DNA of 64,000 bases from assembly GCF_046105845.1 (NCBI RefSeq), contig NZ_CP151004.1. The stretch is one strand, 5' to 3'. Under the pieces are notes generated by a model. It had not been told where the DNA came from. It worked only from the letters and a program-made list of their open reading frames with translations, and made no database searches. Position 1 is the first letter of the stretch; every line of letters begins with the position of its first letter. Of the stretch, positions 591-58,840 are shown one piece after another. Origin of the DNA: Escherichia coli. Its GTDB lineage: Bacteria; Pseudomonadota; Gammaproteobacteria; Enterobacterales; Enterobacteriaceae. A program made the translations under genes and the position numbers.

Positions 591-627
591 CAGGTCGGAT
601 GCGACGCGAACGTCTTATCCGACCTGG
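591..627. repeat. REP-like palindromic unit downstream of tcdA
   Basis: caggtcggatgcgacgcgaacgtcttatccgacctgg: imperfect palindrome of REP type (GGATGCG...CTTATCC). Confidence 0.5.
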
Positions 628-2719: not shown

Positions 2720-2925
2720 AAAAAAAAGCACCGCAATTAGGCGGTGCTACATTAATCACTATGGACAGACAGGGTAAATGTACAGGAAGTGAAAAAAGGT
2801 AGCTTTGCTACCATGGTCTGAATCGCAGACCAATTGCAAACACAACAACACAACATCACAACCGTAAGCCAAAAGTTCACCAGAACACGCATTCCGATAA
2901 AACTTTTCGTTCCGGCTCAGGAAGT
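2720..2925 (-). ncRNA. gcvB: GcvB small regulatory RNA (Hfq-dependent, represses amino-acid/peptide transporter mRNAs)
   Basis: Minus-strand sequence reads ACTTCCTGAGCCGGAACGAAAAGTTTTATCGGAATGCGTGTTCTGGTGAAC...TGTTGTGTTGTTGTGTTTGCAATTGG... (G/U-rich R1 region) and ends in hairpin GCACCGCCTAATTGCGGTGC plus U8; divergent from gcvA. Confidence 0.85.
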
Positions 2926-5478: not shown

Positions 5479-5521
5479 CAGGCAAGGCCGGGGCGTCGTC
5501 TCCGGCCTGCTACCCTTTCCG

Positions 5522-6253
5522 TCAGGCTGTTACCAAAGAAGTTGCAACCTGGCGCTCATCAGAAATAATGTGCGTGACCTCATCCAGATGCCCGATGCGG
5601 GCTTCCCCTGAACGATTAAATTTACTTTTATCAATCAATAACAACGATTGCGCGGCGCGTTTTAATAGCATTGATTTGTAATCAGCGTTGATGGCATTGG
5701 AGTCCCACAGTGCGCCGCTGCTATCGATCCCTTCACAAGAAAAAATAAACAGATCGATTTCCAGCGATTTAAGTTGGGAAATCAGCGAGGGATTGACGTA
5801 ACAGCCATATTTGCGCTCAAGTGTGCCGCCGGAACTGATCAGTTGAATGCGTTCGCGTTTACCGAGTTCATGGCAAATCGGATGGCTATTGGTGAAGACC
5901 TGGATGTTGATGTCAGGCAACTGGCGTGCCAGATACCAGCAGGTTGAACTGGCGTCTAAGGCTATTACCATCCCTTCTTCAATCCACGCGAGCGCCTCGC
6001 GCGCGATATCTGCTTTATGCGCATAATGGCTTTTCAGCCGGATGTGAAAGGGATCGCCACTGTCTTGATTTTGACGGTGGATATATTTAGCGCGCCCATG
6101 ATTGCGCAGAATTTTACCCTGCGTCTGTAATTCATTGAGATCGCGACGAATGGTTTCTTTACTGACCTTTAGCTGTTCAGAGAGAGCTTCCGTGGTCAGG
6201 CTGGTATGGTTCAGCAGCAGGTCGACTATCGCTTGCTGGCGTGCCGCTTTCAT
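5522..6253 (-). CDS. fucR: DeoR-family activator of the fucose regulon FucR
   Basis: ORF 5522..6262 trimmed to MKAARQQAIVDLL start; N-terminal DeoR HTH, C-terminal sugar-phosphate binding domain. Confidence 0.85.
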   Translation of the reverse strand: MKAARQQAIVDLLLNHTSLTTEALSEQLKVSKETIRRDLNELQTQGKILRNHGRAKYIHRQNQDSGDPFHIRLKSHYAHKADIAREALAWIEEGMVIALDASSTCWYLARQLPDINIQVFTNSHPICHELGKRERIQLISSGGTLERKYGCYVNPSLISQLKSLEIDLFIFSCEGIDSSGALWDSNAINADYKSMLLKRAAQSLLLIDKSKFNRSGEARIGHLDEVTHIISDERQVATSLVTA

Positions 6254-6734: not shown

Positions 6735-8153
6735 TCACACTTCCTCTATAAATTCAGGTTCAGTTTGCGGGTAGAAATAACGGTACTGATAATGAATCTG
6801 CGCGCGGGCTTCTTCCGGGCTGTTAAATTCCCCTACGCCATACCAACCGAACAGCGCAGCTCCTGCGACGGTCGTTTCTGCGTCGTCGAGAACTTTTACC
6901 GGAATATCAAGCATATTGGCTTTAATCTGATTCCACAATGTGTTGCGACTTCCTCCGCCGACTAACAATAATTCAGAGGCTTTAAAGTGCCCGATTTTTT
7001 CCAGCATCTGTAGATTGCGCTGTAATTGCGCGGTTAACCCTTCCAGCGCCGCGCGATAGAAATGCCCCCGCGTGGTATTAAGCGTCACTCCTTGCCAGCC
7101 AGCGTTCTGACACGACAATAAATCACACTGCATTTTCACGCCATCCGCGCCAGGCGCGATCAGACGAGCCTCTTCAATCAACATTTGCCAGGGAGTTTCA
7201 GCCGTCCAGAACAGTTTTCTCACCCATTCCAGCACGCCGGATGCCAGCCATTGCATACCTGGGTTATACAACCCTGCCTGACTATCCAGTTCGCAGGTGG
7301 AACCGGCATACTGACTTAACAGCGAAGTATCAACCTGGGCGCTACGGACCATTAAAATTTCCCATGTACCGGAAGAGAGCACGGGTTCATTTTGTTCAGC
7401 ACCAGCGCCAAAAAGGGCGAACTGGGTATCGTGACCTGCGGAAATCACCGGTATGCCAACGGGTAAGCCGAGCATTGCTGCGGCGCTGTTCTGTAACGTA
7501 CCAATCTGTTCACCCGCCTCCACCAGACGAGGGAAGAGTCGGCGTGGAATACCGGTGGCGTGTAAAATTTGCGGACTGAAATCGCGTTGCTGGATATCCA
7601 GCATCTGGCTGGTTCCGGCCATCGTGATATCAGTAGTGAATTCGCCGGTTAAACGGTGGTTAATCAGCGACGAAATAAAGAGCCAGGCGTGCGCGCGTTC
7701 CAGCAGTTGTGGATGATTTTCTTTCAACCACACCAACTTATATAACGTATTGAAACTAAAGGCTCCGACTCCAGAAATAGCCTGCAACTGCTGTGCGGAG
7801 ATCAACCGTTCAATATTGTCCATTACCGCTGCTGTTCGCGGACATTTCCAGCTAATGATCGGATAGAGCAGATTGCCTTGCTTATCTACCAGAGCGCCAT
7901 CCACACCAAAGGTGGTGACGGCGATACCGCGGATGTGGCAATCAGTCAGTTCACTATTGATTTGCCGACAGCAATCAGCAAAGCGTTGCAAAATGGCGTC
8001 TAAAGACCACTGGTGCCAGGTGTTGTTTTCCATCGCGATATCGCTGGCATTAGGCGTTGAGGCGCGGGCAACAATTTTTCCCTGCCGATTAACCGCGATG
8101 GCCCTGACATTGGTCGCGCCACAGTCGAGTACCAGGATAACTTCTTGTTTCAT
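6735..8153 (-). CDS. fucK: L-fuculokinase FucK (FGGY carbohydrate kinase)
   Basis: ORF 6735..8183 trimmed to [17 protein letters not shown] start; FGGY kinase N-terminal motif. Confidence 0.85.
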
Positions 8154-8261
8154 AATCGCTCCTGCAATATAGCCGGATAACATTGTTTATCCGGCTAACC
8201 ACTCTTGCTTGTTCAGGCCCGGTAGCCGGAGCGACCGGGCATCACATCAGGGAGTAATGTA

Positions 8262-13756: not shown

Positions 13757-13774
13757 ATACGCTGATGTGATAAT

Positions 13775-13807
13775 GCCGGATGCGACGCTAGCCGCGTCTT
13801 ATCCGGC
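13775..13807. repeat. REP element between convergent fucO and xni
   Basis: gccggatgcgacgctagccgcgtcttatccggc, canonical REP-type palindrome. Confidence 0.6.
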
Positions 13808-13860
13808 ATATAAGTGCATTAAATTCAATGTGCTGATAATCGTTTGCATCCGGCACGTCG

Positions 13861-16094
<2,234 letters not shown>

Positions 16095-21144: not shown

Positions 21145-21510
21145 GTCGACAGGGAGTCAGACAACGAAGTGAACATCAGGATGATGACACTTCTGAAGGA
21201 CACACCAGGATGGTGTTTCAGGGAAAGGCTTCTGGATGAAGCGAAGAGGATGACGCAGGACGCGTTAAAGGACACCTCCAGGATGGAGAATGAGAACCGG
21301 TCAGGATGATTCGGTGGGTCAGGAAGGCCAGGGACACTTCAGGATGAAGTATCACATCGGGGTGGTGTGAGCAGGAAGCAATAGTTCAGGATGAACGATT
21401 GGCCGCAAGGCCAGAGGAAAAGTTGTCAAGGATGAGCAGGGAGCAACAAAAGTAGCTGGAATGCTGCGAAACGAACCGGGAGCACTGTGAATACAGTGCT
21501 CCCTTTTTTT
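21145..21510 (+). ncRNA. csrB: CsrB, CsrA-sequestering small RNA
   Basis: Starts GTCGACAGGGAGTCAGACAACGAAGTGAACATCAGGATGATGACAC; many CAGGATG/AGGA motifs in predicted loops; ends with a terminator. Confidence 0.9.
21478..21510 (+). terminator. rho-independent terminator of csrB
   Basis: gggagcactgtgaatacagtgctccc hairpin followed by ttttttt. Confidence 0.8.
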
Positions 21511-21555
21511 ATTCCTGCTATCCTTCGCGGCAGTTTTTCTTATTGAGGTTGCTTT

Positions 21556-27689: not shown

Positions 27690-27830
27690 GCCGGTTTTCC
27701 CCCTCGCCCTTTCAGGGAGAGGGGCGGGGTGAGGGTAATCATTCGCACTTGCGTTGGCCTGTTCCCCTCACCCTAACCCTCTCCCCGGAGGGGCGAGGGG
27801 ACTGTCTGTGCTGCTCCCAGCATTGGCATT
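27690..27830. repeat. GC-rich inverted-repeat element between convergent gudD and barA
   Basis: Two copies of a C/G-tract module in inverted orientation: ccccctcgccctttcagggagaggggcggggtgaggg ... cccctcaccctaaccctctccccggaggggcgagggga. Confidence 0.55.
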
Positions 27831-41272: not shown

Positions 41273-42643
41273 GAGTTCCCCGCGCCAGCGGGGATAAACC
41301 GTTGTCCTGCTGAACCAAGTAAGCCACTGACAAGAGTTCCCCGCGCCAGCGGGGATAAACCGCATTATATCCTGTGCGTCGTTCATTTATTTACGAGTTC
41401 CCCGCGCCAGCGGGGATAAACCGGCCGCCGCATGGCAAAACAAACATCGGGGTACGAGTTCCCCGCGCCAGCGGGGATAAACCGGAACGGCGGCTATACG
41501 GATTCGACAGGTCAGCGAGTTCCCCGCGCCAGCGGGGATAAACCGGATTGAATGCAGATGGTTCAATGCTCGCATTCGAGTTCCCCGCGCCAGCGGGGAT
41601 AAACCGCCACGCGTGCTTTGAGTGGATGGTGTCGCTTGGAGTTCCCCGCGCCAGCGGGGATAAACCGATACATTATTAAGCGGGCAATTTTTCCAGTTTG
41701 AGTTCCCCGCGCCAGCGGGGATAAACCGAACGGCACGGCCTGCCGCCACGTCCCGCAGCTGAGTTCCCCGCGCCAGCGGGGATAAACCGGGGCCGTGTTT
41801 TCTAACGGATTCGCACATTGCGAGTTCCCCGCGCCAGCGGGGATAAACCGCAGCAGTTCAATACTGAAATCAACATGCCGATGAGTTCCCCGCGCCAGCG
41901 GGGATAAACCGCGCGGTGGGGTTTCATTCGCATCAATTCAAGGGAGTTCCCCGCGCCAGCGGGGATAAACCGGCGGTGAGTGAGAAAATCAGGACGGCTG
42001 CGAGGAGTTCCCCGCGCCAGCGGGGATAAACCGCGCCAAATATGCTGGTGGACTTCTACGCCGATGAGTTCCCCGCGCCAGCGGGGATAAACCGCTATCG
42101 ACGGTCAAGAAAATCCACCGGAAGAAGAGTTCCCCGCGCCAGCGGGGATAAACCGGCAGCAATATATTTGACATAATAGATAACCCGGAGTTCCCCGCGC
42201 CAGCGGGGATAAACCGACGCCAGGGGAGATATAACGCGCCTGTTATGGGAGTTCCCCGCGCCAGCGGGGATAAACCGGTCTTAACTAAAAGATGACCATT
42301 CAGTCGCAGGAGTTCCCCGCGCCAGCGGGGATAAACCGCGGCCCATAATATTAATATAATCCACATGAGGGAGTTCCCCGCGCCAGCGGGGATAAACCGC
42401 GCCGGAAATCATCGTTCTGTAATTGTCTAGCGAGTTCCCCGCGCCAGCGGGGATAAACCGCCCTGTTTGTTATTCCCATTATACGTATAAGAGAGTTCCC
42501 CGCGCCAGCGGGGATAAACCGCTTCTGGCTGGAGGTGGAGAAACGGAGGCAATGAGTTCCCCGCGTTAGCGGGGATAAACCGGATTTAGAGAGCCAGACG
42601 TTGGTCAGTTATTCGAGTTCCCCGCGTCAGCGGGGATAACCAT
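41273..42643 (+). CRISPR. Type I-E CRISPR array, 23 repeats / 22 spacers
   Basis: 29-bp repeat GAGTTCCCCGCGCCAGCGGGGATAAACCG recurs at exactly 61-bp period from 41273 to 42615; 32-bp unique spacers; repeat 22 has C>T (GCGTTAGCGGGG); terminal repeat degenerate (GCGTCAGCGGGGATAACCA). Confidence 0.97.
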
Positions 42644-42688: not shown

Positions 42689-44167
42689 TTACGCATTCGA
42701 CCAGCTCTGGATCGAATCTTCATTCCCCAATTCCCCATGCATCACTTCATACGATTTTTTCAGGATCACATCAGTGTGTTTGGTTAGGTCTTTGAAAATG
42801 CCTTTATTCATCGCGTCGTAGCGTTTGGCGTTGCTCTCAACAGGCATAAAGATATCTTTCACGCGAACCATTTTGTCGACAGCCGTTGCGTAATCCGGGT
42901 ATAGCCCCAGACCTACCGCCGTATTAATCGCTGCCCCCAGGCTTGCACAACCATTAATGGCGTTACGGCGTGCCGGAAGGTTGAACACGTCGGCAAAAAT
43001 CTGCATAAACAGATCGCTGTTCGAACCGCCGCCAGTAATGATCACATGCTTTGCAAAGTGATTCATTTCATTACACATATTGTCGTAATTGTTCTTCAGC
43101 GTCAGCGCCACGCTTTCCAGTATCGAACGATATATCCATGCGTAATCCATGCTGGAATCAAAGCCGATCATAATCCCGCGTTTGTACGGTTCCCACGGAT
43201 TGGTCAGCCAGTCCAGCACCGTCATCAGACCATTACAGCCAGGCGGCACACAAGACGCTTTTTTGTTGAGCAAATCTTCCGGTGAAAGATCCTGTGCTTT
43301 GGCATCCTGAATTAACGACTCGCCTAACATGTCGCGTAGCCAGCTCACCGTCCACATGCCTTTGCGGATACCGTAACCTTCATACAGCAAGGTTTGTGGA
43401 ATAGAAGACATAATCGGCCAGTACGCTACCGGATCTTTCGGCAGTGCTTTGCCGTTCATCATCAACGCGATGTAAGTGCCAAGAGAAATTACCGCAGTTT
43501 CATCATCCAGTAACCCGGCTCCCAGTGCTTCTACCGGTTTATCACTGGTGGTACAAACAACCGGCAGCCCAGCCGGGAAATGTGTAGCCAGCGCGGCTTG
43601 AGGAGTGATATGCCCAAGAACAGTGCCCGGCATTTGCACATCAAACAGCATATGACGGGGGATATTAAACTTCTCCATGACTGCGGCATCTTCACTCCAT
43701 GCCCAGGTCTTATAATCCACCGGCCACTGACCAAAATAGTTGGCGATATTGTCTTTAAACTCGCCGGTTAAGCGATGCGTCAGATAACCTGAAAAAGAGG
43801 TGACATATGCCACGTCAGGATTCGTATGTTCGTAAGGGCGTGTAACGCGTGCATCCTGCCAGCTAATCAACGGCGCAGCTGGCGTGCCATCGGCTTTCAA
43901 TAACGCACGGCAGCAACGGATGGATCCCAGACCAATACCGACAATATCTTCTTTATTTCCGGCAAACTGACTCATCAAATCGTGACCGGCAAAACATAAT
44001 GATGCCCATAAATCGTCGTCAGGATGTTCTGCGGTATCGGCATCTGGCGTGTGCATCGGCTGTAATAAGCCTTTGCCTTCGCAAACCACGTTACCTTCCA
44101 GATCGTACATCACCACTTTTGTGCTCTGACTTCCGCCATCAATCCCTATGATGTATTTTTTCGACAT
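42689..44167 (-). CDS. ygcE: FGGY-family carbohydrate kinase YgcE (substrate unknown)
   Basis: 492 aa MSKKYIIGIDGGSQSTKVVMYD; FGGY N- and C-terminal domains. Confidence 0.85.
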   Translation of the reverse strand: MSKKYIIGIDGGSQSTKVVMYDLEGNVVCEGKGLLQPMHTPDADTAEHPDDDLWASLCFAGHDLMSQFAGNKEDIVGIGLGSIRCCRALLKADGTPAAPLISWQDARVTRPYEHTNPDVAYVTSFSGYLTHRLTGEFKDNIANYFGQWPVDYKTWAWSEDAAVMEKFNIPRHMLFDVQMPGTVLGHITPQAALATHFPAGLPVVCTTSDKPVEALGAGLLDDETAVISLGTYIALMMNGKALPKDPVAYWPIMSSIPQTLLYEGYGIRKGMWTVSWLRDMLGESLIQDAKAQDLSPEDLLNKKASCVPPGCNGLMTVLDWLTNPWEPYKRGIMIGFDSSMDYAWIYRSILESVALTLKNNYDNMCNEMNHFAKHVIITGGGSNSDLFMQIFADVFNLPARRNAINGCASLGAAINTAVGLGLYPDYATAVDKMVRVKDIFMPVESNAKRYDAMNKGIFKDLTKHTDVILKKSYEVMHGELGNEDSIQSWSNA

Positions 44168-49529: not shown

Positions 49530-50286
49530 AGCCGAACCGGATGCCGGAATGCTGGCGGAAAAAGAGTGGCAGGCGGCGGCTCAGGGTAATAGCGGACCGG
49601 ATGTTTCGCTTCTGCGAAGTTTACTCGGTGCTGATGAACAGGCTGCCGCCGCGCTGCTGTTGGCGCAGAGAAAAAACGGTACGTCGATGTCTTTAACCGC
49701 GTTGAGCATGGGGGATGAACGGGCGTTGCACTGGCTGCGCTATCTCATGGCCCTTGGGTTTGAGGAAGCTGTATTGCTGGAGACAGCGGCAGATCTGCGC
49801 TTTGCGCCGGAATTTGTCGCTCGCCATATTGCCGAATGGCAGCGTCAGAATCCGCTGGATCTGATAATTACCGGCTGCCAAAGCAGCGAAGGGCAGAATG
49901 GGCAAACGCCATTTTTGCTGGCGGAAATGCTGGGCTGGCCCTGCTTCACCCAGGTGGAGCGTTTCACTCTCGACGCGCCGTTTATCACCCTCGAACAGCG
50001 TACTGAACATGGGCTGCGCTGTTGCCGGGTTCGCTTGCCTGCGGTGATTGCCGTGCGCCAGTGCGGTGAAGTGGCCTTGCCAGTACCGGGAATGCGCCAG
50101 CGAATGGCGGCGGGGAAAGCAGAAATTATCCGTAAAACTGTTGCTGCCGAATTGCCAGCGATGCAGTGTCTGCAACTGGCAAGAGCAGAGCAACGACGCG
50201 GAGCGAGGCTGATTGATGGGCAAACGGTAGCAGAAAAAGCGCAAAAGCTATGGCAGGACTATTTACGCCAAAGGATGCGGCCATGA
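49507..50286 (+). CDS. ygcR: electron transfer flavoprotein beta-subunit-like YgcR (FixA-like)
   Basis: Start MNILLAFKAEPD; ETF-beta fold; overlaps ygcS 3' end and ygcQ start. Confidence 0.8.
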   Translation: MNILLAFKAEPDAGMLAEKEWQAAAQGNSGPDVSLLRSLLGADEQAAAALLLAQRKNGTSMSLTALSMGDERALHWLRYLMALGFEEAVLLETAADLRFAPEFVARHIAEWQRQNPLDLIITGCQSSEGQNGQTPFLLAEMLGWPCFTQVERFTLDAPFITLEQRTEHGLRCCRVRLPAVIAVRQCGEVALPVPGMRQRMAAGKAEIIRKTVAAELPAMQCLQLARAEQRRGARLIDGQTVAEKAQKLWQDYLRQRMRP

Positions 50287-51143
50287 ATATCGCAATTGTG
50301 ACAATAAATCAGGAGAATGCCGCAATAGCGAGCTGGCTGGCGGCGCAGGATTTCAGCGGTTGTACCCTGGCGCACTGGCAGATTGAACCTCAGCCCGTAG
50401 TGGCGGAACAGGTGCTGGATGCGCTGGTGGAACAGTGGCAGCGAACGCCTGCGGACGTTGTTCTCTTTCCGCCGGGAACGTTTGGCGATGAACTGTCGAC
50501 CCGGCTGGCCTGGCGTTTACATGGTGCAAGCATCTGCCAGGTGACTTCGTTAGATATTCCAACCGTAAGCGTGCGCAAATCCCACTGGGGAAATGCGCTA
50601 ACGGCGACGCTGCAAACAGAAAAACGCCCGCTATGCCTTTCCCTGGCGCGTCAGGCGGGAGCAGAGAAAAACGCCACGTTGCCCTCTGGTATGCAGCAAC
50701 TGAATATTGTCCCGGGTGCGCTTCCCGACTGGCTGGTTAGCACAGAGGATCTGAAAAATGTTACCCGCGACTCATTAGCTGAAGCCAGACGGGTGCTGGT
50801 GGTGGGGCAGGGCGGAGAGGCAGATAACCAGGAAATCGCTATGCTGGCAGAAAAGCTGGGAGCCGAAGTGGGCTACAGTCGGGCGCGAGTGATGAACGGT
50901 GGCGTTGATGCTGAAAAAGTGATTGGTATTTCCGGACATTTGCTGGCACCTGAGGTGTGTATTGTTGTTGGCGCTTCCGGCGCAGCAGCGTTAATGGCGG
51001 GCGTACGCAATAGCAAGTTTGTGGTGGCGATTAATCATGACGCCAGCGCGGCGGTATTTTCACAGGCAGATGTTGGCGTGGTTGATGACTGGAAAGCGGT
51101 GCTGGAGGCACTGGTGACAACCATTCACGCAGATTGCCAATAA
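50283..51143 (+). CDS. ygcQ: electron transfer flavoprotein alpha-subunit-like YgcQ (FixB-like)
   Basis: ORF 50250 trimmed to MNIAIVTINQ; C-terminal ETF-alpha FAD-binding region; ATGA overlap with ygcR stop. Confidence 0.8.
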   Translation: MNIAIVTINQENAAIASWLAAQDFSGCTLAHWQIEPQPVVAEQVLDALVEQWQRTPADVVLFPPGTFGDELSTRLAWRLHGASICQVTSLDIPTVSVRKSHWGNALTATLQTEKRPLCLSLARQAGAEKNATLPSGMQQLNIVPGALPDWLVSTEDLKNVTRDSLAEARRVLVVGQGGEADNQEIAMLAEKLGAEVGYSRARVMNGGVDAEKVIGISGHLLAPEVCIVVGASGAAALMAGVRNSKFVVAINHDASAAVFSQADVGVVDDWKAVLEALVTTIHADCQ

Positions 51144-51147
51144 CGTG

Positions 51148-51253
51148 CTGCCGGATGATCCTGCCTACGGTTCTGGGCTGGGGACTTGTAAGCCTGATAA
51201 GACGCGTCAAGCGTCGTATCAGGCGCTGAATGTCGGATGTGGCGTGCAGCCTA
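51148..51253. repeat. BIME (tandem REP units) between convergent ygcQ and ygcP
   Basis: tgccggatgatcctgcctac...gcctgataagacgcgtcaagcgtcgtatcaggc...gtcggatgtggcgtgcagcctac: several REP-type palindromes. Confidence 0.6.
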
Positions 51254-51289
51254 CAAAGCACATAAATTCAACTCGTTACGAGTATCCCG

Positions 51290-51865
51290 TCAAAGCAATT
51301 TTTTCGCTAACGTCCAGACCCCGGTATTCGTGGTGGAAAGCGCCACAACACCCGCGTTAATCGCATTACGCGCATCTTCTTCATCGCACACCAGCCCGCC
51401 GGCAATCAGCGGTTGGCGGATTTTCTCCGTCACCCAGCCCAGCACTTTAGGCATACAGCCTGGCAGGATCTCAATACAATCCGGATTCGATTGCGCAACT
51501 TGCTTATCAATGTTGTGAAACGAAATTGAATCAACAATAAACAGGCGATGAATACAGAAAAAACCTTCCGCTCTTGCCGCTTTCAACATTGAGGCTTTGG
51601 TACTGATAATGCCGTCCGCCTCAGTCACCAGTTTCAAAAACTGAATCACCACTTCTTTATTTGACGCGCCTTCCAGCAAATCAACATGAATAAAAGCATA
51701 TTTTCCGGCATTTTTAATCTTTTTAACGATTTGACTAATGGTGCAGATATTGCCGTACAACACGGAAATAAACTGGCATTCAGAGTCGATTGCCAGTTGC
51801 AGGCTGGCATTATCTTTAACGGCAGCAATCACCGGATTCTGGCGGAGCAGGTGTAAGAGGGGCAT
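51290..51865 (-). CDS. ygcP: GlpP-like glycerol-3-phosphate-responsive antiterminator family protein YgcP
   Basis: 191 aa MPLLHLLRQNPVIAAVKDNASLQ; GlpP/G3P-antiterminator fold. Confidence 0.8.
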   Translation of the reverse strand: MPLLHLLRQNPVIAAVKDNASLQLAIDSECQFISVLYGNICTISQIVKKIKNAGKYAFIHVDLLEGASNKEVVIQFLKLVTEADGIISTKASMLKAARAEGFFCIHRLFIVDSISFHNIDKQVAQSNPDCIEILPGCMPKVLGWVTEKIRQPLIAGGLVCDEEDARNAINAGVVALSTTNTGVWTLAKKLL

Positions 51866-54162: not shown

Positions 54163-55962
54163 ATGACGACACAGGTCCCACCTTCCGCGTTGCTTCCGTT
54201 GAACCCGGAGCAACTGGCACGCCTTCAGGCGGCCACGACCGATTTAACTCCTACCCAGCTTGCCTGGGTTTCTGGCTATTTCTGGGGCGTGCTCAACCAG
54301 CAGCCTGCTGCGCTTGCAGCGACGCCAGCGCCCGCCGCAGAAATGCCGGATATAACTATTATCTCCGCTTCGCAAACCGGCAATGCGCGCCGGGTTGCTG
54401 AAGCATTACGCGATGATTTATTAGCGGCAAAACTGAACGTTAAGCTGGTGAACGCGGGCGACTATAAATTCAAACAAATCGCCAGCGAAAAACTGCTCAT
54501 CGTGGTGACGTCAACGCAAGGGGAAGGGGAACCGCCGGAAGAAGCCGTCGCGCTGCATAAGTTCCTGTTCTCCAAAAAAGCGCCAAAGCTGGAAAACACT
54601 GCATTTGCCGTGTTTAGCCTCGGCGATAGCTCTTATGAATTTTTCTGCCAGTCCGGGAAAGATTTTGACAGCAAGCTGGCGGAACTGGGCGGTGAACGCC
54701 TGCTCGACCGTGTCGATGCCGACGTTGAATACCAGGCTGCTGCCATCGAGTGGCGCGCCCGCGTGGTTGATGCGCTTAAATCGCGTGCGCCTGTCGCGGC
54801 ACCTTCGCAATCCGTCGCTACTGGCGCGGTAAATGAAATCCACACCAGCCCGTACAGCAAAGACGCGCCGCTGGTGGCGAGCCTCTCTGTTAACCAGAAA
54901 ATTACCGGGCGTAACTCTGAAAAAGACGTTCGCCATATCGAAATTGACTTAGGTGACTCTGGCCTGCGTTACCAGCCGGGTGACGCGCTGGGCGTCTGGT
55001 ATCAGAACGATCCGGCACTGGTGAAAGAACTTGTCGAACTGCTGTGGCTGAAAGGCGATGAAACTGTCACCGTTGACGGCAAAACGCTGACCCTGAGCGA
55101 AGCGCTACAGTGGCACTTTGAACTCACCGTCAACACCGCGAATATTGTTGAGAACTACGCCACGCTTACCCGCAGCGAAACGCTGCTGCCGCTGGTGGGC
55201 GATAAAGCCAAGTTACAGCATTACGCCGTGACCACGCCGATTGTTGACATGGTGCGTTTCTCTCCGGCGCAACTGGATGCCGAAGCGCTGATTAACCTGC
55301 TGCGCCCGCTGACCCCGCGCCTGTATTCCATCGCCTCCTCGCAGGCGGAAGTCGAGAACGAAGTACACGTTACCGTTGGTGTGGTGCGTTACGACGTGGA
55401 AGGCCGCGCCCGTGCCGGTGGTGCCTCCAGTTTCCTCGCGGACCGTGTGGAAGAAGAGGGCGAAGTCCGCGTCTTTATCGAACATAACGATAACTTCCGC
55501 CTGCCAGCCAATCCGGAAACGTCGGTGATTATGATTGGCCCAGGCACCGGCATCGCGCCGTTCCGCGCCTTTATGCAGCAACGCGCCGCCGACGAAGCGT
55601 CGGGGAAAAACTGGCTGTTCTTTGGCAACCCGCACTTTACGGAAGATTTCCTCTACCAGGTGGAATGGCAGCGCTACGTCAAAGAGGGCGTGCTGACGCG
55701 TATCGATCTTGCCTGGTCGCGCGATCAAAAAGAAAAAATTTACGTACAAGACAAACTGCGCGAACAGGGCGCGGAGCTGTGGCGCTGGATCAATGACGGT
55801 GCCCACATTTATGTCTGCGGCGACGCTAATCGCATGGCGAAAGACGTTGAGCAGGCACTTCTGGAAGTGATTGCCGAATTTGGTGGCATGGACACCGAAG
55901 CGGCGGATGAATTTTTAAGTGAGCTGCGCGTAGAGCGCCGTTATCAGCGAGATGTCTACTAA
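54163..55962 (+). CDS. cysJ: sulfite reductase [NADPH] flavoprotein alpha-component CysJ
   Basis: 599 aa; flavodoxin-like FMN domain plus FAD/NADPH ferredoxin-reductase domain. Confidence 0.95.
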
Positions 55963-57674
55963 TGAGCGAAAAACATCCAGGGCCTTTAGTGGTCGAAGGA
56001 AAACTGACAGACGCCGAGCGCATGAAGCTTGAAAGCAACTACCTGCGCGGCACCATTGCGGAAGATTTAAACGACGGTCTGACCGGTGGTTTTAAGGGCG
56101 ACAACTTCCTGCTGATCCGCTTCCACGGCATGTATCAGCAGGATGACCGCGACATCCGCGCCGAACGTGCTGAACAGAAGCTGGAGCCACGTCATGCAAT
56201 GCTGTTGCGCTGTCGTCTGCCGGGTGGGGTGATTACCACCAAACAGTGGCAGGCGATCGATAAATTTGCCGGTGAAAACACCATCTATGGCAGCATTCGC
56301 CTGACCAACCGCCAGACGTTTCAGTTTCACGGCATTCTGAAAAAGAACGTCAAACCGGTGCACCAGATGCTGCACTCGGTCGGTCTTGATGCGCTGGCGA
56401 CCGCCAACGATATGAACCGTAACGTGCTGTGCACTTCGAACCCTTACGAGTCGCAGTTGCACGCGGAAGCATATGAATGGGCGAAGAAAATCTCTGAACA
56501 TCTGCTGCCACGTACCCGCGCGTATGCGGAGATCTGGCTCGATCAGGAAAAAGTCGCCACTACTGATGAAGAGCCGATCCTTGGTCAGACCTACCTGCCG
56601 CGTAAGTTCAAAACCACGGTAGTGATCCCGCCGCAGAACGATATCGATCTGCACGCCAACGACATGAACTTCGTGGCGATCGCCGAAAACGGCAAGCTGG
56701 TGGGCTTTAACCTGCTGGTGGGCGGTGGGCTTTCCATCGAGCACGGCAACAAGAAGACCTACGCCCGCACGGCGAGTGAGTTTGGTTATCTGCCGCTGGA
56801 GCATACGCTAGCGGTGGCGGAAGCCGTCGTGACAACTCAGCGTGACTGGGGTAACCGAACCGATCGTAAAAATGCCAAAACCAAATACACGCTGGAGCGC
56901 GTGGGGGTTGAGACGTTTAAAGCGGAAGTGGAGCGTCGCGCGGGGATCAAATTTGAACCGATCCGTCCGTATGAGTTTACCGGACGCGGCGATCGTATTG
57001 GCTGGGTTAAGGGCATTGATGATAACTGGCACCTGACGCTGTTTATCGAAAATGGTCGCATCCTTGATTATCCTGGGCGTCCGCTGAAAACCGGCCTGCT
57101 GGAGATCGCGAAGATCCACAAAGGCGATTTCCGCATTACGGCGAACCAGAATCTAATCATCGCCGGTGTGCCGGAAAGCGAGAAAGCGAAGATCGAGAAG
57201 ATCGCCAAAGAGAGCGGGTTAATGAATGCCGTCACGCCGCAGCGTGAAAACTCAATGGCCTGCGTGTCATTCCCGACTTGCCCGCTGGCGATGGCGGAAG
57301 CAGAGCGTTTCCTGCCGTCTTTTATCGACAACATCGATAATTTAATGGCGAAACATGGTGTCAGCGATGAGCATATCGTGATGCGTGTAACAGGCTGCCC
57401 GAACGGTTGTGGTCGCGCGATGCTGGCGGAAGTGGGCCTGGTGGGTAAAGCGCCGGGTCGCTACAACCTGCATCTTGGCGGCAACCGCATTGGGACACGT
57501 ATCCCACGGATGTATAAAGAAAACATCACCGAGCCGGAAATCCTGGCGTCGCTTGATGAACTGATAGGGCGCTGGGCGAAAGAGCGCGAAGCGGGTGAAG
57601 GCTTCGGCGACTTTACGGTGCGTGCGGGCATCATTCGCCCGGTGCTCGATCCGGCGCGGGATTTGTGGGATTAA
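55962..57674 (+). CDS. cysI: sulfite reductase [NADPH] hemoprotein beta-component CysI
   Basis: 570 aa; siroheme/4Fe-4S cysteines ([19 protein letters not shown]); ATG overlaps cysJ stop. Confidence 0.95.
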
Positions 57675-57690: not shown

Positions 57691-57730
57691 GTAGGCCTGA
57701 TAAGACGTGTGAGCGTCGCATCAGGCAAGG
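57691..57730. repeat. REP element between cysI and cysH
   Basis: gtaggcctgataagacgtgtgagcgtcgcatcaggcaagg. Confidence 0.55.
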
Positions 57731-58482: not shown

Positions 58483-58840
58483 ATATTGCCGGATAAATTA
58501 AACGCCTCTGTCAGAAATGATGGGGGCGTTTTTATTTTGCGAGCAGCATTCCTGATTTTAAACGTGAACGCCGCTGGAAGAATCAACAGGTATATAATGG
58601 TGTCGGGTGCTTGAGGCTGTCTGGCGTTAAGCATTCGCGAGGTTCCAGATGGACAAAAGCCCCAGGCGATATTTCTATCAACCTGAGGCCAGCGTTCGAA
58701 CCCAAACAATTCGAATGTTAGTCTCTTCTTTGCAGGGAGGCAAGACATGTGTATATCACTGTAATTCGATATTTATGAGCAGCATCGAAAAATAGTCCAC
58801 TGATATCATCGATAATACTAAAAAAACAGGGAGGCTATTA

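Follow-up and report, generated by a model that had tools for sequence, protein, structure and literature searches.

In a 64,000-nucleotide stretch of Escherichia coli DNA (hereafter the window), ygcQ and ygcP converge, and the spacer that separates them carries a decayed BIME that, with identity and anatomy judged jointly from sequence alignment, is almost certainly the orthologue of the K-12 element REP201 and a member of the "atypical" class. The best explanation of the whole, which we hold with good confidence, is that the element is a decayed BIME, a probable relic of repeats spread by a RAYT, whose remaining role would be that of a hairpin in the 3′ UTR. The element is an already known, catalogued and ordinary repeat. 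The preliminary description had listed positions 51148-51253 as a multi-unit BIME, which is correct on origin, as the element goes back to three units in alternating orientation, and overstated for the present, where one working palindrome (51188-51224) is left between two stubs of Y units.

The ygcQ open reading frame (50250-51143, plus strand; electron-transfer flavoprotein alpha/FixB family) ends with a TAA stop codon at 51141-51143 on the plus strand, placed by the open reading frame list, the K-12 annotation and collinearity. It converges with ygcP (51290-51865, minus strand; glycerol-3-phosphate responsive antiterminator family), placed by the open reading frame list and the annotation of BLAST hits, and the 146 bp between them (51144-51289) form the spacer. 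The gene names come from BLAST searches of 5,426 complete E. coli genomes. Over its full length, and in reverse orientation, the window is collinear with positions 2945620-2882060 of K-12 MG1655 at 96.7-98.1% identity. In K-12, REP201 is placed at 2894809-2894875, between ygcP and ygcQ, by Harris et al. 2026 (bioRxiv 10.64898/2026.03.23.713779), whose supplement classes it as "Convergent". The K-12 coordinates of REP201 and REP203 used here are those of that supplement, the RefSeq K-12 record having no repeat_region features. The REP201 coordinates correspond to window positions 51187-51253, an interval that includes the central unit and the right remnant only and leaves the left Y remnant and its linker (51150-51187) outside.

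Alignment of the window spacer with the K-12 ygcQ/ygcP spacer shows an identical architecture. The two copies share the orthologous position, the flanking genes, the three-part arrangement and both internal deletions, with 95% mean column identity over the aligned stretch, gene ends included. The window copy differs from K-12 REP201 by GTAA in place of GTAG at the foot, by T in place of C at one position of the stem mismatch and by a few other substitutions.

The element spans 51150-51254, with its units in plus, minus and plus orientation and linkers of 19 and 7 nt. As read from alignment, it derives from an array of the form Y, 19-nt linker, Z1, 7-nt linker, Y in alternating orientation, and internal deletions have since removed the inner stem and loop of both Y units, which leaves the central Z1 as the only unit predicted to form a hairpin. 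The left Y-type remnant (51150-51168, plus strand) reads GCCGGATG up to the deletion junction and ATCCtGCCTAC after it; it was defined by alignment with the intact orthologous Y units of E. whittamii and E. albertii, and the roughly 15 nt missing from its inner stem and loop, CGGCGTGGACGCCTT, are missing in K-12 as well. A tail-to-tail linker of 19 nt follows at 51169-51187 (GGTTCTGGGCTGGGGACTT), a short, S-like BIME linker. The linker names S, s, l and r are used provisionally for this BIME and may differ from the original definitions of 1994. The intact Z1-type unit occupies 51188-51224 on the minus strand (K-12 2894838-2894874), where it reads GCCTGATaCGACGCTTGACGCGTCTTATCAGGCtTAC; on the plus strand the order is GTAA, GCCTGATAAGACGC, GTCAA and GCGTCGTATCAGGC, with inverted-repeat arms of 14 nt and, at 51188-51191, a foot of GTAA where the canonical sequence is GTAG. 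A head-to-head linker of 7 nt (GCTGAAT, 51225-51231) separates it from the right Y-type remnant (51232-51254, plus strand), which reads GtCGGATGtGGCGTG and, across a deletion of about 11 nt, caGCCTAC. The orthologue of this right unit is intact in E. albertii, and its deletion junction is common to K-12, E. whittamii and strain SCPM-O-B-8794. Both remnants retain CTAC.

Folding agrees with this anatomy. On either strand the Z1 unit is predicted to form a stem of 8 bp, a 1x1 mismatch and 5 bp, with free energies of -22.9 and -22.0 kcal/mol on the two strands (z = -7.1 and -6.9), and it is the only strong local structure in the spacer. In contrast, the Y remnants folded alone and compared with shuffles gave no hairpin (z = +0.26 for the left and +0.20 for the right). 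The stem mismatch is 2x2 in K-12 and is reduced to 1x1 in the window through the C to T change, which creates an A-T pair.

Consensus sequences for the Y, Z1 and Z2 units (Z1 being 37 nt long) were taken from Durrant et al. 2024 (PMC11208160) and used in a half-site pair scan and, together with shuffles, in a Sellers edit-distance scan. With three mismatches at most allowed, a degenerate REP pattern matched 13775-13811 on the plus strand and 51188-51224 on the minus strand, and found nothing in 100 dinucleotide-preserving shuffles. Edit distances to Z1 were 4 at 57691 (minus strand), 5 at 51188 (minus strand) and 7 at 13810 (plus strand), where the best value over 40 shuffled windows was 10-12. 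For the central unit at 51188-51224, the distance of 5 to Z1 compares with 8 to Z2, within the chance range, and 11 to Y. A further unit at 594-623 lies 9-10 edits from every consensus, at the boundary of chance by sequence alone; the median number of places per E. coli genome that match its 40-mer is 28. The 40-mers of the units at 13775, 51188 and 57691 occur at 40 places or more per genome. These counts span 5425 genomes, with identical settings for the REPs and for a control hairpin between fucI and fucK. The consensus search and copy count that had been proposed as a check on the preliminary description gave, for the REPs, matches in the window against none in the shuffles and 28 to more than 40 places per genome.

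The four intact units fold at -19.6 to -25.7 kcal/mol (z = -4.8 to -7.1), each with a predicted internal stem mismatch, and all REP units are extragenic, in the tcdA/csdE, fucO/xni, ygcQ/ygcP and cysI/cysH spacers. With 355 REP elements in the 4.64 Mb of K-12 (Harris et al.), about five would be expected in 64 kb, in agreement with the four observed. Three extra matches of the half-site scan (5505-5527, 7589-7609 and 54975-55016) were rejected, as they lie in coding sequence and have no REP inner stem; they are within the chance rate of that scan, 1.7 matches per shuffle. A search of the whole window against Rfam at the gathering threshold returned no family over the REP sites and only CsrB, GcvB and sok.

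The preliminary description had placed REP-type palindromes at five sites, at convergent gene ends. Four of the five are REPs beyond chance, and three of the five lie between convergent genes. The single divergent REP at 591-626 (plus strand) is located between the convergent stop codons of tcdA (583-585) and csdE (636-638), 5 and 9 nt from them. Its core at 594-623 reads GtCGGATG...TTATCCGaC, in which a compensatory T-A pair replaces C-G; it has no CTAC foot and folds at -25.2 kcal/mol (z = -6.6). The single intact REP at 13775-13807 (plus strand), between the convergent genes fucO and xni, is the counterpart of REP203 in K-12, placed by Harris et al. inside a bidirectional terminator. It combines a Y-type head with a Z1-type inner stem, has no CTAC foot and folds at -25.7 kcal/mol (z = -6.7). 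The fucO/xni spacer measures 104 nt in the window against 54 nt in K-12, the hairpins differ and the REP is different by about 50 nt. The remaining unit, at 57691-57726 on the minus strand, is an intact Z1 REP with a canonical GTAG foot in the cysJIH operon, between the cysI stop codon (57672-57674) and the cysH ATG (57749), two genes in tandem, and folds at -19.6 kcal/mol (z = -4.8). Among the intact units GTAG is kept only here (57691-57694); the equivalent position reads ATAT after the unit at 13775-13807 and CTGG after that at 594-623.

The fifth site, the spacer of the tandem genes fucI and fucK, holds no REP. Its palindrome at 8170-8197 (minus strand) is perfect over 11 bp (TAGCCGGATAA and TTATCCGGCTA) and sits just upstream of the fucK ribosome-binding site, and a second, unrelated hairpin is found at 8218-8241. 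The first of these hairpins has the GCCGGAT/ATCCGGC outer stem of Y units and neither the inner stem nor the CTAC foot. Its 40-mer occurs at a median of one place per genome, against 28 to more than 40 for the true REPs under the same settings, and we therefore rejected it as a REP.

A scan of 100,044 genomes, one per bacterial species, with YgcQ yielded the orthologous locus of five other Escherichia genomes; a distant Pseudomonas match (44% identity) was left out of the locus comparison. The flanks are conserved on both sides at all compared loci, and the spacer between them varies in its units. Escherichia sp. MOD1-EC7003 has one intact Y, and strain SCPM-O-B-8794 has one Y whose deletion junction is that of the E. 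coli right remnant. E. whittamii carries Y-S-Z1-s-Y with the first Y intact and the last deleted, where E. coli (the window and K-12) has both Y units deleted around the same Z1. E. albertii has five intact units in the order Y-S-Z1-s-Y-S-Z1-s-Y, with heads 96 nt apart, and strain E69 also has five, the first and last Y being truncated.

The linkers recur elsewhere. Downstream of wzxC, strain STEC1587 carries an intact BIME of Y, 19 nt, Z1, 7 nt and Y, with linkers as at ygcQ/ygcP. Its order is Y, GGTTCTGTGCTCGGATCTT, Z1, ACTGAAT, Y, GGTTCTAGGCTCGGGTCTT and GTAG, after which it is interrupted by the IS621 gene. The two versions of the 19-nt linker in this BIME, GGTTCTGTGCTCGGATCTT and GGTTCTAGGCTCGGGTCTT, belong to a linker also found at the orthologous loci, and the 7-nt linker, as ACTGAAT or GCTGAAT, is common to both.

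Within E. coli, the three-part architecture, deletions included, was found in 4,815 of the 5,426 complete genomes at 90-99% identity, and the spacer measured 146-147 bp in all 26 sampled orthologues, with no size polymorphism. The exact 40-mer of the window Z1 unit is present in at most 188 of 5,476 records, which indicates that the window version is a minority allele.

Insertion sequences were also seen at REPs. At ygcQ/ygcP, the central unit of strain EC21Z-144 has a transposase gene of the IS3 family directly next to its loop. This element and the IS621 in the wzxC BIME are two cases in which REPs have served as insertion targets. In the window, the natural IS621 target ATCAGGCCTAC is present without mismatch in the unit at 57691, and the unit at 51188-51224 matches it with one mismatch.

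The REPs had been described as typical core-genome elements that support the species assignment. The first part is too strong: K-12 REP202, in the barA/gudD spacer, is missing from the window, which has a different dispersed repeat in its place, the REP at fucO/xni differs, and the number of units at ygcQ/ygcP ranges from one to five. REP occupancy differs between the window and K-12 at two of five loci. The second part receives little backing, as the same Y and Z1 units stand at ygcQ/ygcP in E. albertii and E. whittamii, and the first descriptions of REPs concerned E. coli as well as Salmonella (PMC12306157). The assignment to E. coli follows instead from collinearity with K-12 at 96.7-98.1% identity; in the ygc region, K-12 is 97.4% identical and the other Escherichia genomes are 89-94% identical. 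Over 20 kb, identity to complete RefSeq E. coli genomes reaches 98.1% at most, and the source therefore represents an uncommon lineage.

By origin, the element would be a non-autonomous relic of the REP/BIME repeats, whose spreader is thought to be the RAYT (TnpA_REP), a tyrosine transposase. For binding and cleavage, TnpA_REP depends on the GTAG foot as well as on the stem mismatch, and a full substrate consists of a complete REP next to which there is an inverted REP or a linker with a CT cleavage site (Ton-Hoang et al., PMC3333891). At the ygcQ/ygcP unit the foot is GTAA, one stem mismatch has been repaired, and both partner units are truncated. The window Z1 copy is thus probably a poor or dead RAYT substrate, as judged from its altered foot and its repaired mismatch.

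As to a present function, the Z1 hairpin would most likely be part of the 3′ UTRs of the ygcQ and ygcP transcripts alike; being palindromic, it is predicted to form in each of them. There it may block 3′-5′ exonucleases and so protect both the ygcQ and ygcP mRNAs, and it may assist Rho-dependent termination, so that less transcription would run on into the opposing gene. We give about even weight to this reading of a passive, shared 3′-UTR hairpin, which draws on analogy with characterised REPs. REPs are able to stop 3′-5′ exonucleases and to terminate transcription partially through Rho. About 30% of E. coli convergent spacers carry a REP, and where one is present, both genes tend to be expressed at a higher level; REP325 has two activities, terminating transcription in a partly Rho-dependent manner and stabilising mRNA (Harris et al.). 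In K-12, the screen of Delaleau et al. 2022 places a Rho-binding peak in the 3′ end of ygcQ, 85 bp upstream of REP201; the peak is weak (log10 enrichment of 0.3) and does not fall on the REP itself. In the part of the Harris et al. table of REPs in bidirectional terminators drawn on here, REP203 is present and REP201 is not among the entries.

The main rival to the 3′-UTR hairpin reading is a neutral fossil, that is, decaying selfish repeat DNA with no present function, in which the hairpin has merely not yet been deleted. This is a possibility that we regard as serious and, on balance, unlikely. It would account for the internal deletions in two of the three units, for the change of the foot from GTAG to GTAA and the loss of a stem mismatch in the window lineage (whose exact 40-mer is in at most 188 of 5476 records), for the spread from one to five units among Escherichia species and for the IS3-family element that interrupts the central-unit loop in EC21Z-144. 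REPs also have no genome-wide effect on mRNA half-life. The decay of two units out of three, together with the one to five units in sister species, argues against strong selection on the whole array. However, the architecture, deletions included, is kept in 4815 of 5426 genomes at 90-99% identity, the surviving stem carries no disruptive changes, and the C to T change of the lineage adds a base pair. The correlation of REPs between convergent genes with higher expression of both genes likewise stands against a purely neutral element.

A further reading is that E. coli lost, under selection, the left Y hairpin to relieve REP-mediated ribosome stalling and the resulting repression of YgcQ, which we consider doubtful. 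In E. albertii, E. whittamii and Escherichia sp. MOD1-EC7003, the ygcQ stop codon is followed at a distance of 6-7 nt by the start of an intact Y hairpin, and REPs within 15 nt of a stop codon stall terminating ribosomes and lower upstream expression according to the account of Liang, Rudd and Deutscher 2015 given in PMC12306157. In E. coli, a clean 15-nt deletion takes out the left Y hairpin and the distal Z1 hairpin is kept, 48 nt past the stop codon. If this were true, translational repression of YgcQ would be relieved, and the hairpin shared with ygcP, which would protect or terminate 3′ ends, would be retained.

BIME-2 elements bind DNA gyrase, and a role of the ygcQ/ygcP element as a protein-binding BIME (BIME-1 with IHF or BIME-2 with DNA gyrase) in nucleoid structure or supercoiling is improbable, even with the alternation of Y and Z units on which it draws. 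The class of the element bears on this reading. In a BIME-1, one Y and one Z1 unit are paired across a long L linker, frequently with an IHF site in it, and IHF binding is attributed to this class in the literature (Ton-Hoang et al., PMC3333891). The ygcQ/ygcP element shares the Y and Z1 unit types with BIME-1 (RIP or RIB) elements, but has three units, not one pair, and a 19-nt linker. The IHF consensus WATCAANNNNTTR was sought in the Y-Z1 linker without a match, and the only site with one mismatch (51266-51278) is outside the BIME; BIME-1 was therefore rejected for 51150-51254 on linker length and the missing IHF site. With BIME-2 (tandem Y/Z2, as in REP325) the element has in common short linkers and a tandemly expandable unit, which reaches five units in E. 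albertii; the Z unit is Z1 (5 edits) and not Z2 (8 edits), and a single unit is intact in E. coli, and this class was rejected as well. The atypical BIMEs, which combine BIME-1 parts with parts of BIME-2 in the Bachellier classification as given in PMC3333891, fit best in their alternating Y and Z1 units, short linkers and variable copy number; the window element departs from them in that two of its three units are internally deleted and one functional palindrome remains. Two of the three units would be unable to extrude as cruciforms, and REP325 itself has no role in chromosome compaction or in REP-REP contacts (Harris et al.), both points against a structural role.

Also improbable is a Rho-independent, bidirectional terminator that resembles a REP by chance. 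The element has the strong GC-rich hairpin of such terminators, at the 3′ ends of convergent genes, and some REPs coincide with intrinsic terminators, 78 of them lying within predicted bidirectional terminators. A scan of 51144-51289 on both strands for a hairpin followed by a U-tract was nevertheless empty, and the unit at 51188-51224 is an unambiguous member of a dispersed repeat family, Z1, which sets it apart from terminators of this type.

We attach a similarly low probability to an active mobile element, a REPIN-like pair that a RAYT could still excise or copy. REPINs and other RAYT-associated REPs, known from Pseudomonas and as the E. coli TnpA_REP substrates, offer a parallel in that an inverted REP pair is regarded as the mobilisable unit and that a hairpin with a conserved 5′ tetranucleotide is recognised. 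The number of units has shifted repeatedly within the genus, by one 96-nt Y-S-Z1-s unit at a time, and TnpA_REP cleaves and recombines BIMEs in vitro (PMC3333891). Against current mobility, three of the four REPs of the window lack an intact GTAG (the exception being 57691-57694), the ygcQ/ygcP copy combines a GTAA foot and a repaired mismatch with truncated partner Y units, and the uniform 146-147 bp of the 26 sampled E. coli orthologues shows no size polymorphism. Homologous recombination or replication slippage between the direct Y repeats would explain the changes in unit number equally well. Finally, chance palindromes or a small protein-coding gene can be dismissed, as the pattern had zero matches in shuffles, the central unit has more than 40 copies per genome, and the mechanical open reading frames of 71-93 aa that overlap the spacer, three in number, have no Pfam match at E <= 0.1 and run across repeat DNA and the antisense strand of ygcP and ygcQ.

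For annotation, the ygcQ/ygcP spacer should be described as one intact Z1 unit with two Y remnants; labels such as gene, sRNA or terminator should not be used for it. Among the repeats of E. coli, REPs and BIMEs rank first in abundance, and this element matters little beyond its correct annotation. REPs are not usable for calling species within Escherichia, and the difference in occupancy between the window and K-12 fits REPs as a source of strain-level variation in 3′ UTRs. The series of one, three or five units with nested deletions at ygcQ/ygcP offers an example from nature of how a BIME expands, collapses and decays in one genus, and it could be used as test material for REP function.

The convergent fucO/xni spacer (13757-13863) measures 104 nt in the window versus 54 nt in E. 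coli K-12 MG1655 (hereafter K-12), and it contains an intact REP together with a degenerate inverted half-unit whose head, GCCGGATG, lies on the minus strand at 13847-13854. The position of the xni stop codon is identical in the two sequences. The catalogued K-12 element REP203 looks like a head-to-head fusion that followed a deletion of approximately 50 nt between the intact REP and the half-unit.

REP202, a Y unit at K-12 positions 2917888-2917917, is missing from the gudD/barA convergent spacer of the window (27690-27825). Its place is taken by an element of approximately 115 bp whose long arms are inverted (CCCCTCGCCC..GGGAGAGGGGCGGGGTGAGGG and CCCCTCACCCTAACCCTCTCCCCGGAGGGGCGAGGGG). This dispersed repeat, which may belong to the 'Box C' family, has a median count of 15 places in E. 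coli genomes. Matches of at least 99% were recovered in only 138 records, suggesting that the element is uncommon at that site.

Identity to K-12 throughout the window is 96.7-98.1%, and none of the 5,426 complete RefSeq E. coli genomes searched exceeded 98.1% identity over the 20 kb between positions 43000 and 63000. The source appears to represent an E. coli lineage with sparse representation among complete genomes, and strains Z1323HEC0462 and Z1323HEC0423 are its closest relatives. The length difference from K-12 detected by BLAST at 41666-42556 is due to a type I-E CRISPR array between ygcE and queE, which occupies 41600-42620 and beyond, with the repeat GAGTTCCCCGCGCCAGCGGGGATAAACCG and 32-nt spacers. 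This palindromic repeat belongs to a separate family from REPs. Rfam matches above the gathering score comprise GcvB (2720-2925, minus strand), CsrB (21154-21513, plus strand), and a sok antitoxin RNA (58605-58761, plus strand), the last in the region corresponding to the K-12 sokX site, between cysH and cas3.

The REP between tcdA and csdE (591-626) leaves 5 nt to the stop codon of tcdA on one side and 9 nt to that of csdE on the other. Both distances fall inside the range of up to 15 nt from a stop codon within which REPs are reported to stall terminating ribosomes, as Liang et al. 2015 is cited in PMC12306157. At the fucI/fucK palindrome, a mechanical ORF call begins fucK at the ATG at 8181-8183, within the loop, and the K-12 fucK start maps to 8153-8155; on the mRNA, the GGAG ribosome-binding site of fucK (8160-8165) comes immediately 3′ of the hairpin. 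Initiation of fucK translation, or intercistronic processing, could be affected by the palindrome.

In other strains, REPs host insertion sequences. At the ygcQ/ygcP locus of strain EC21Z-144 (positions 520-700 of the locus sequence), the central Z1 unit has an IS3-family element adjoining its loop. In the wzxC BIME of strain STEC1587 (positions 575-860 of that locus sequence), an IS621 copy splits a Z1 unit directly after GTAG. Within the window, the natural IS621 bridge-RNA target, ATCAGGCCTAC, has an exact copy in the cysI/cysH REP (57691-57701, minus strand) and a one-mismatch copy, ATCAGGCTTAC, in the ygcQ/ygcP REP (51188-51198, minus strand). The position of IS621 in the wzxC BIME is consistent with this known target.
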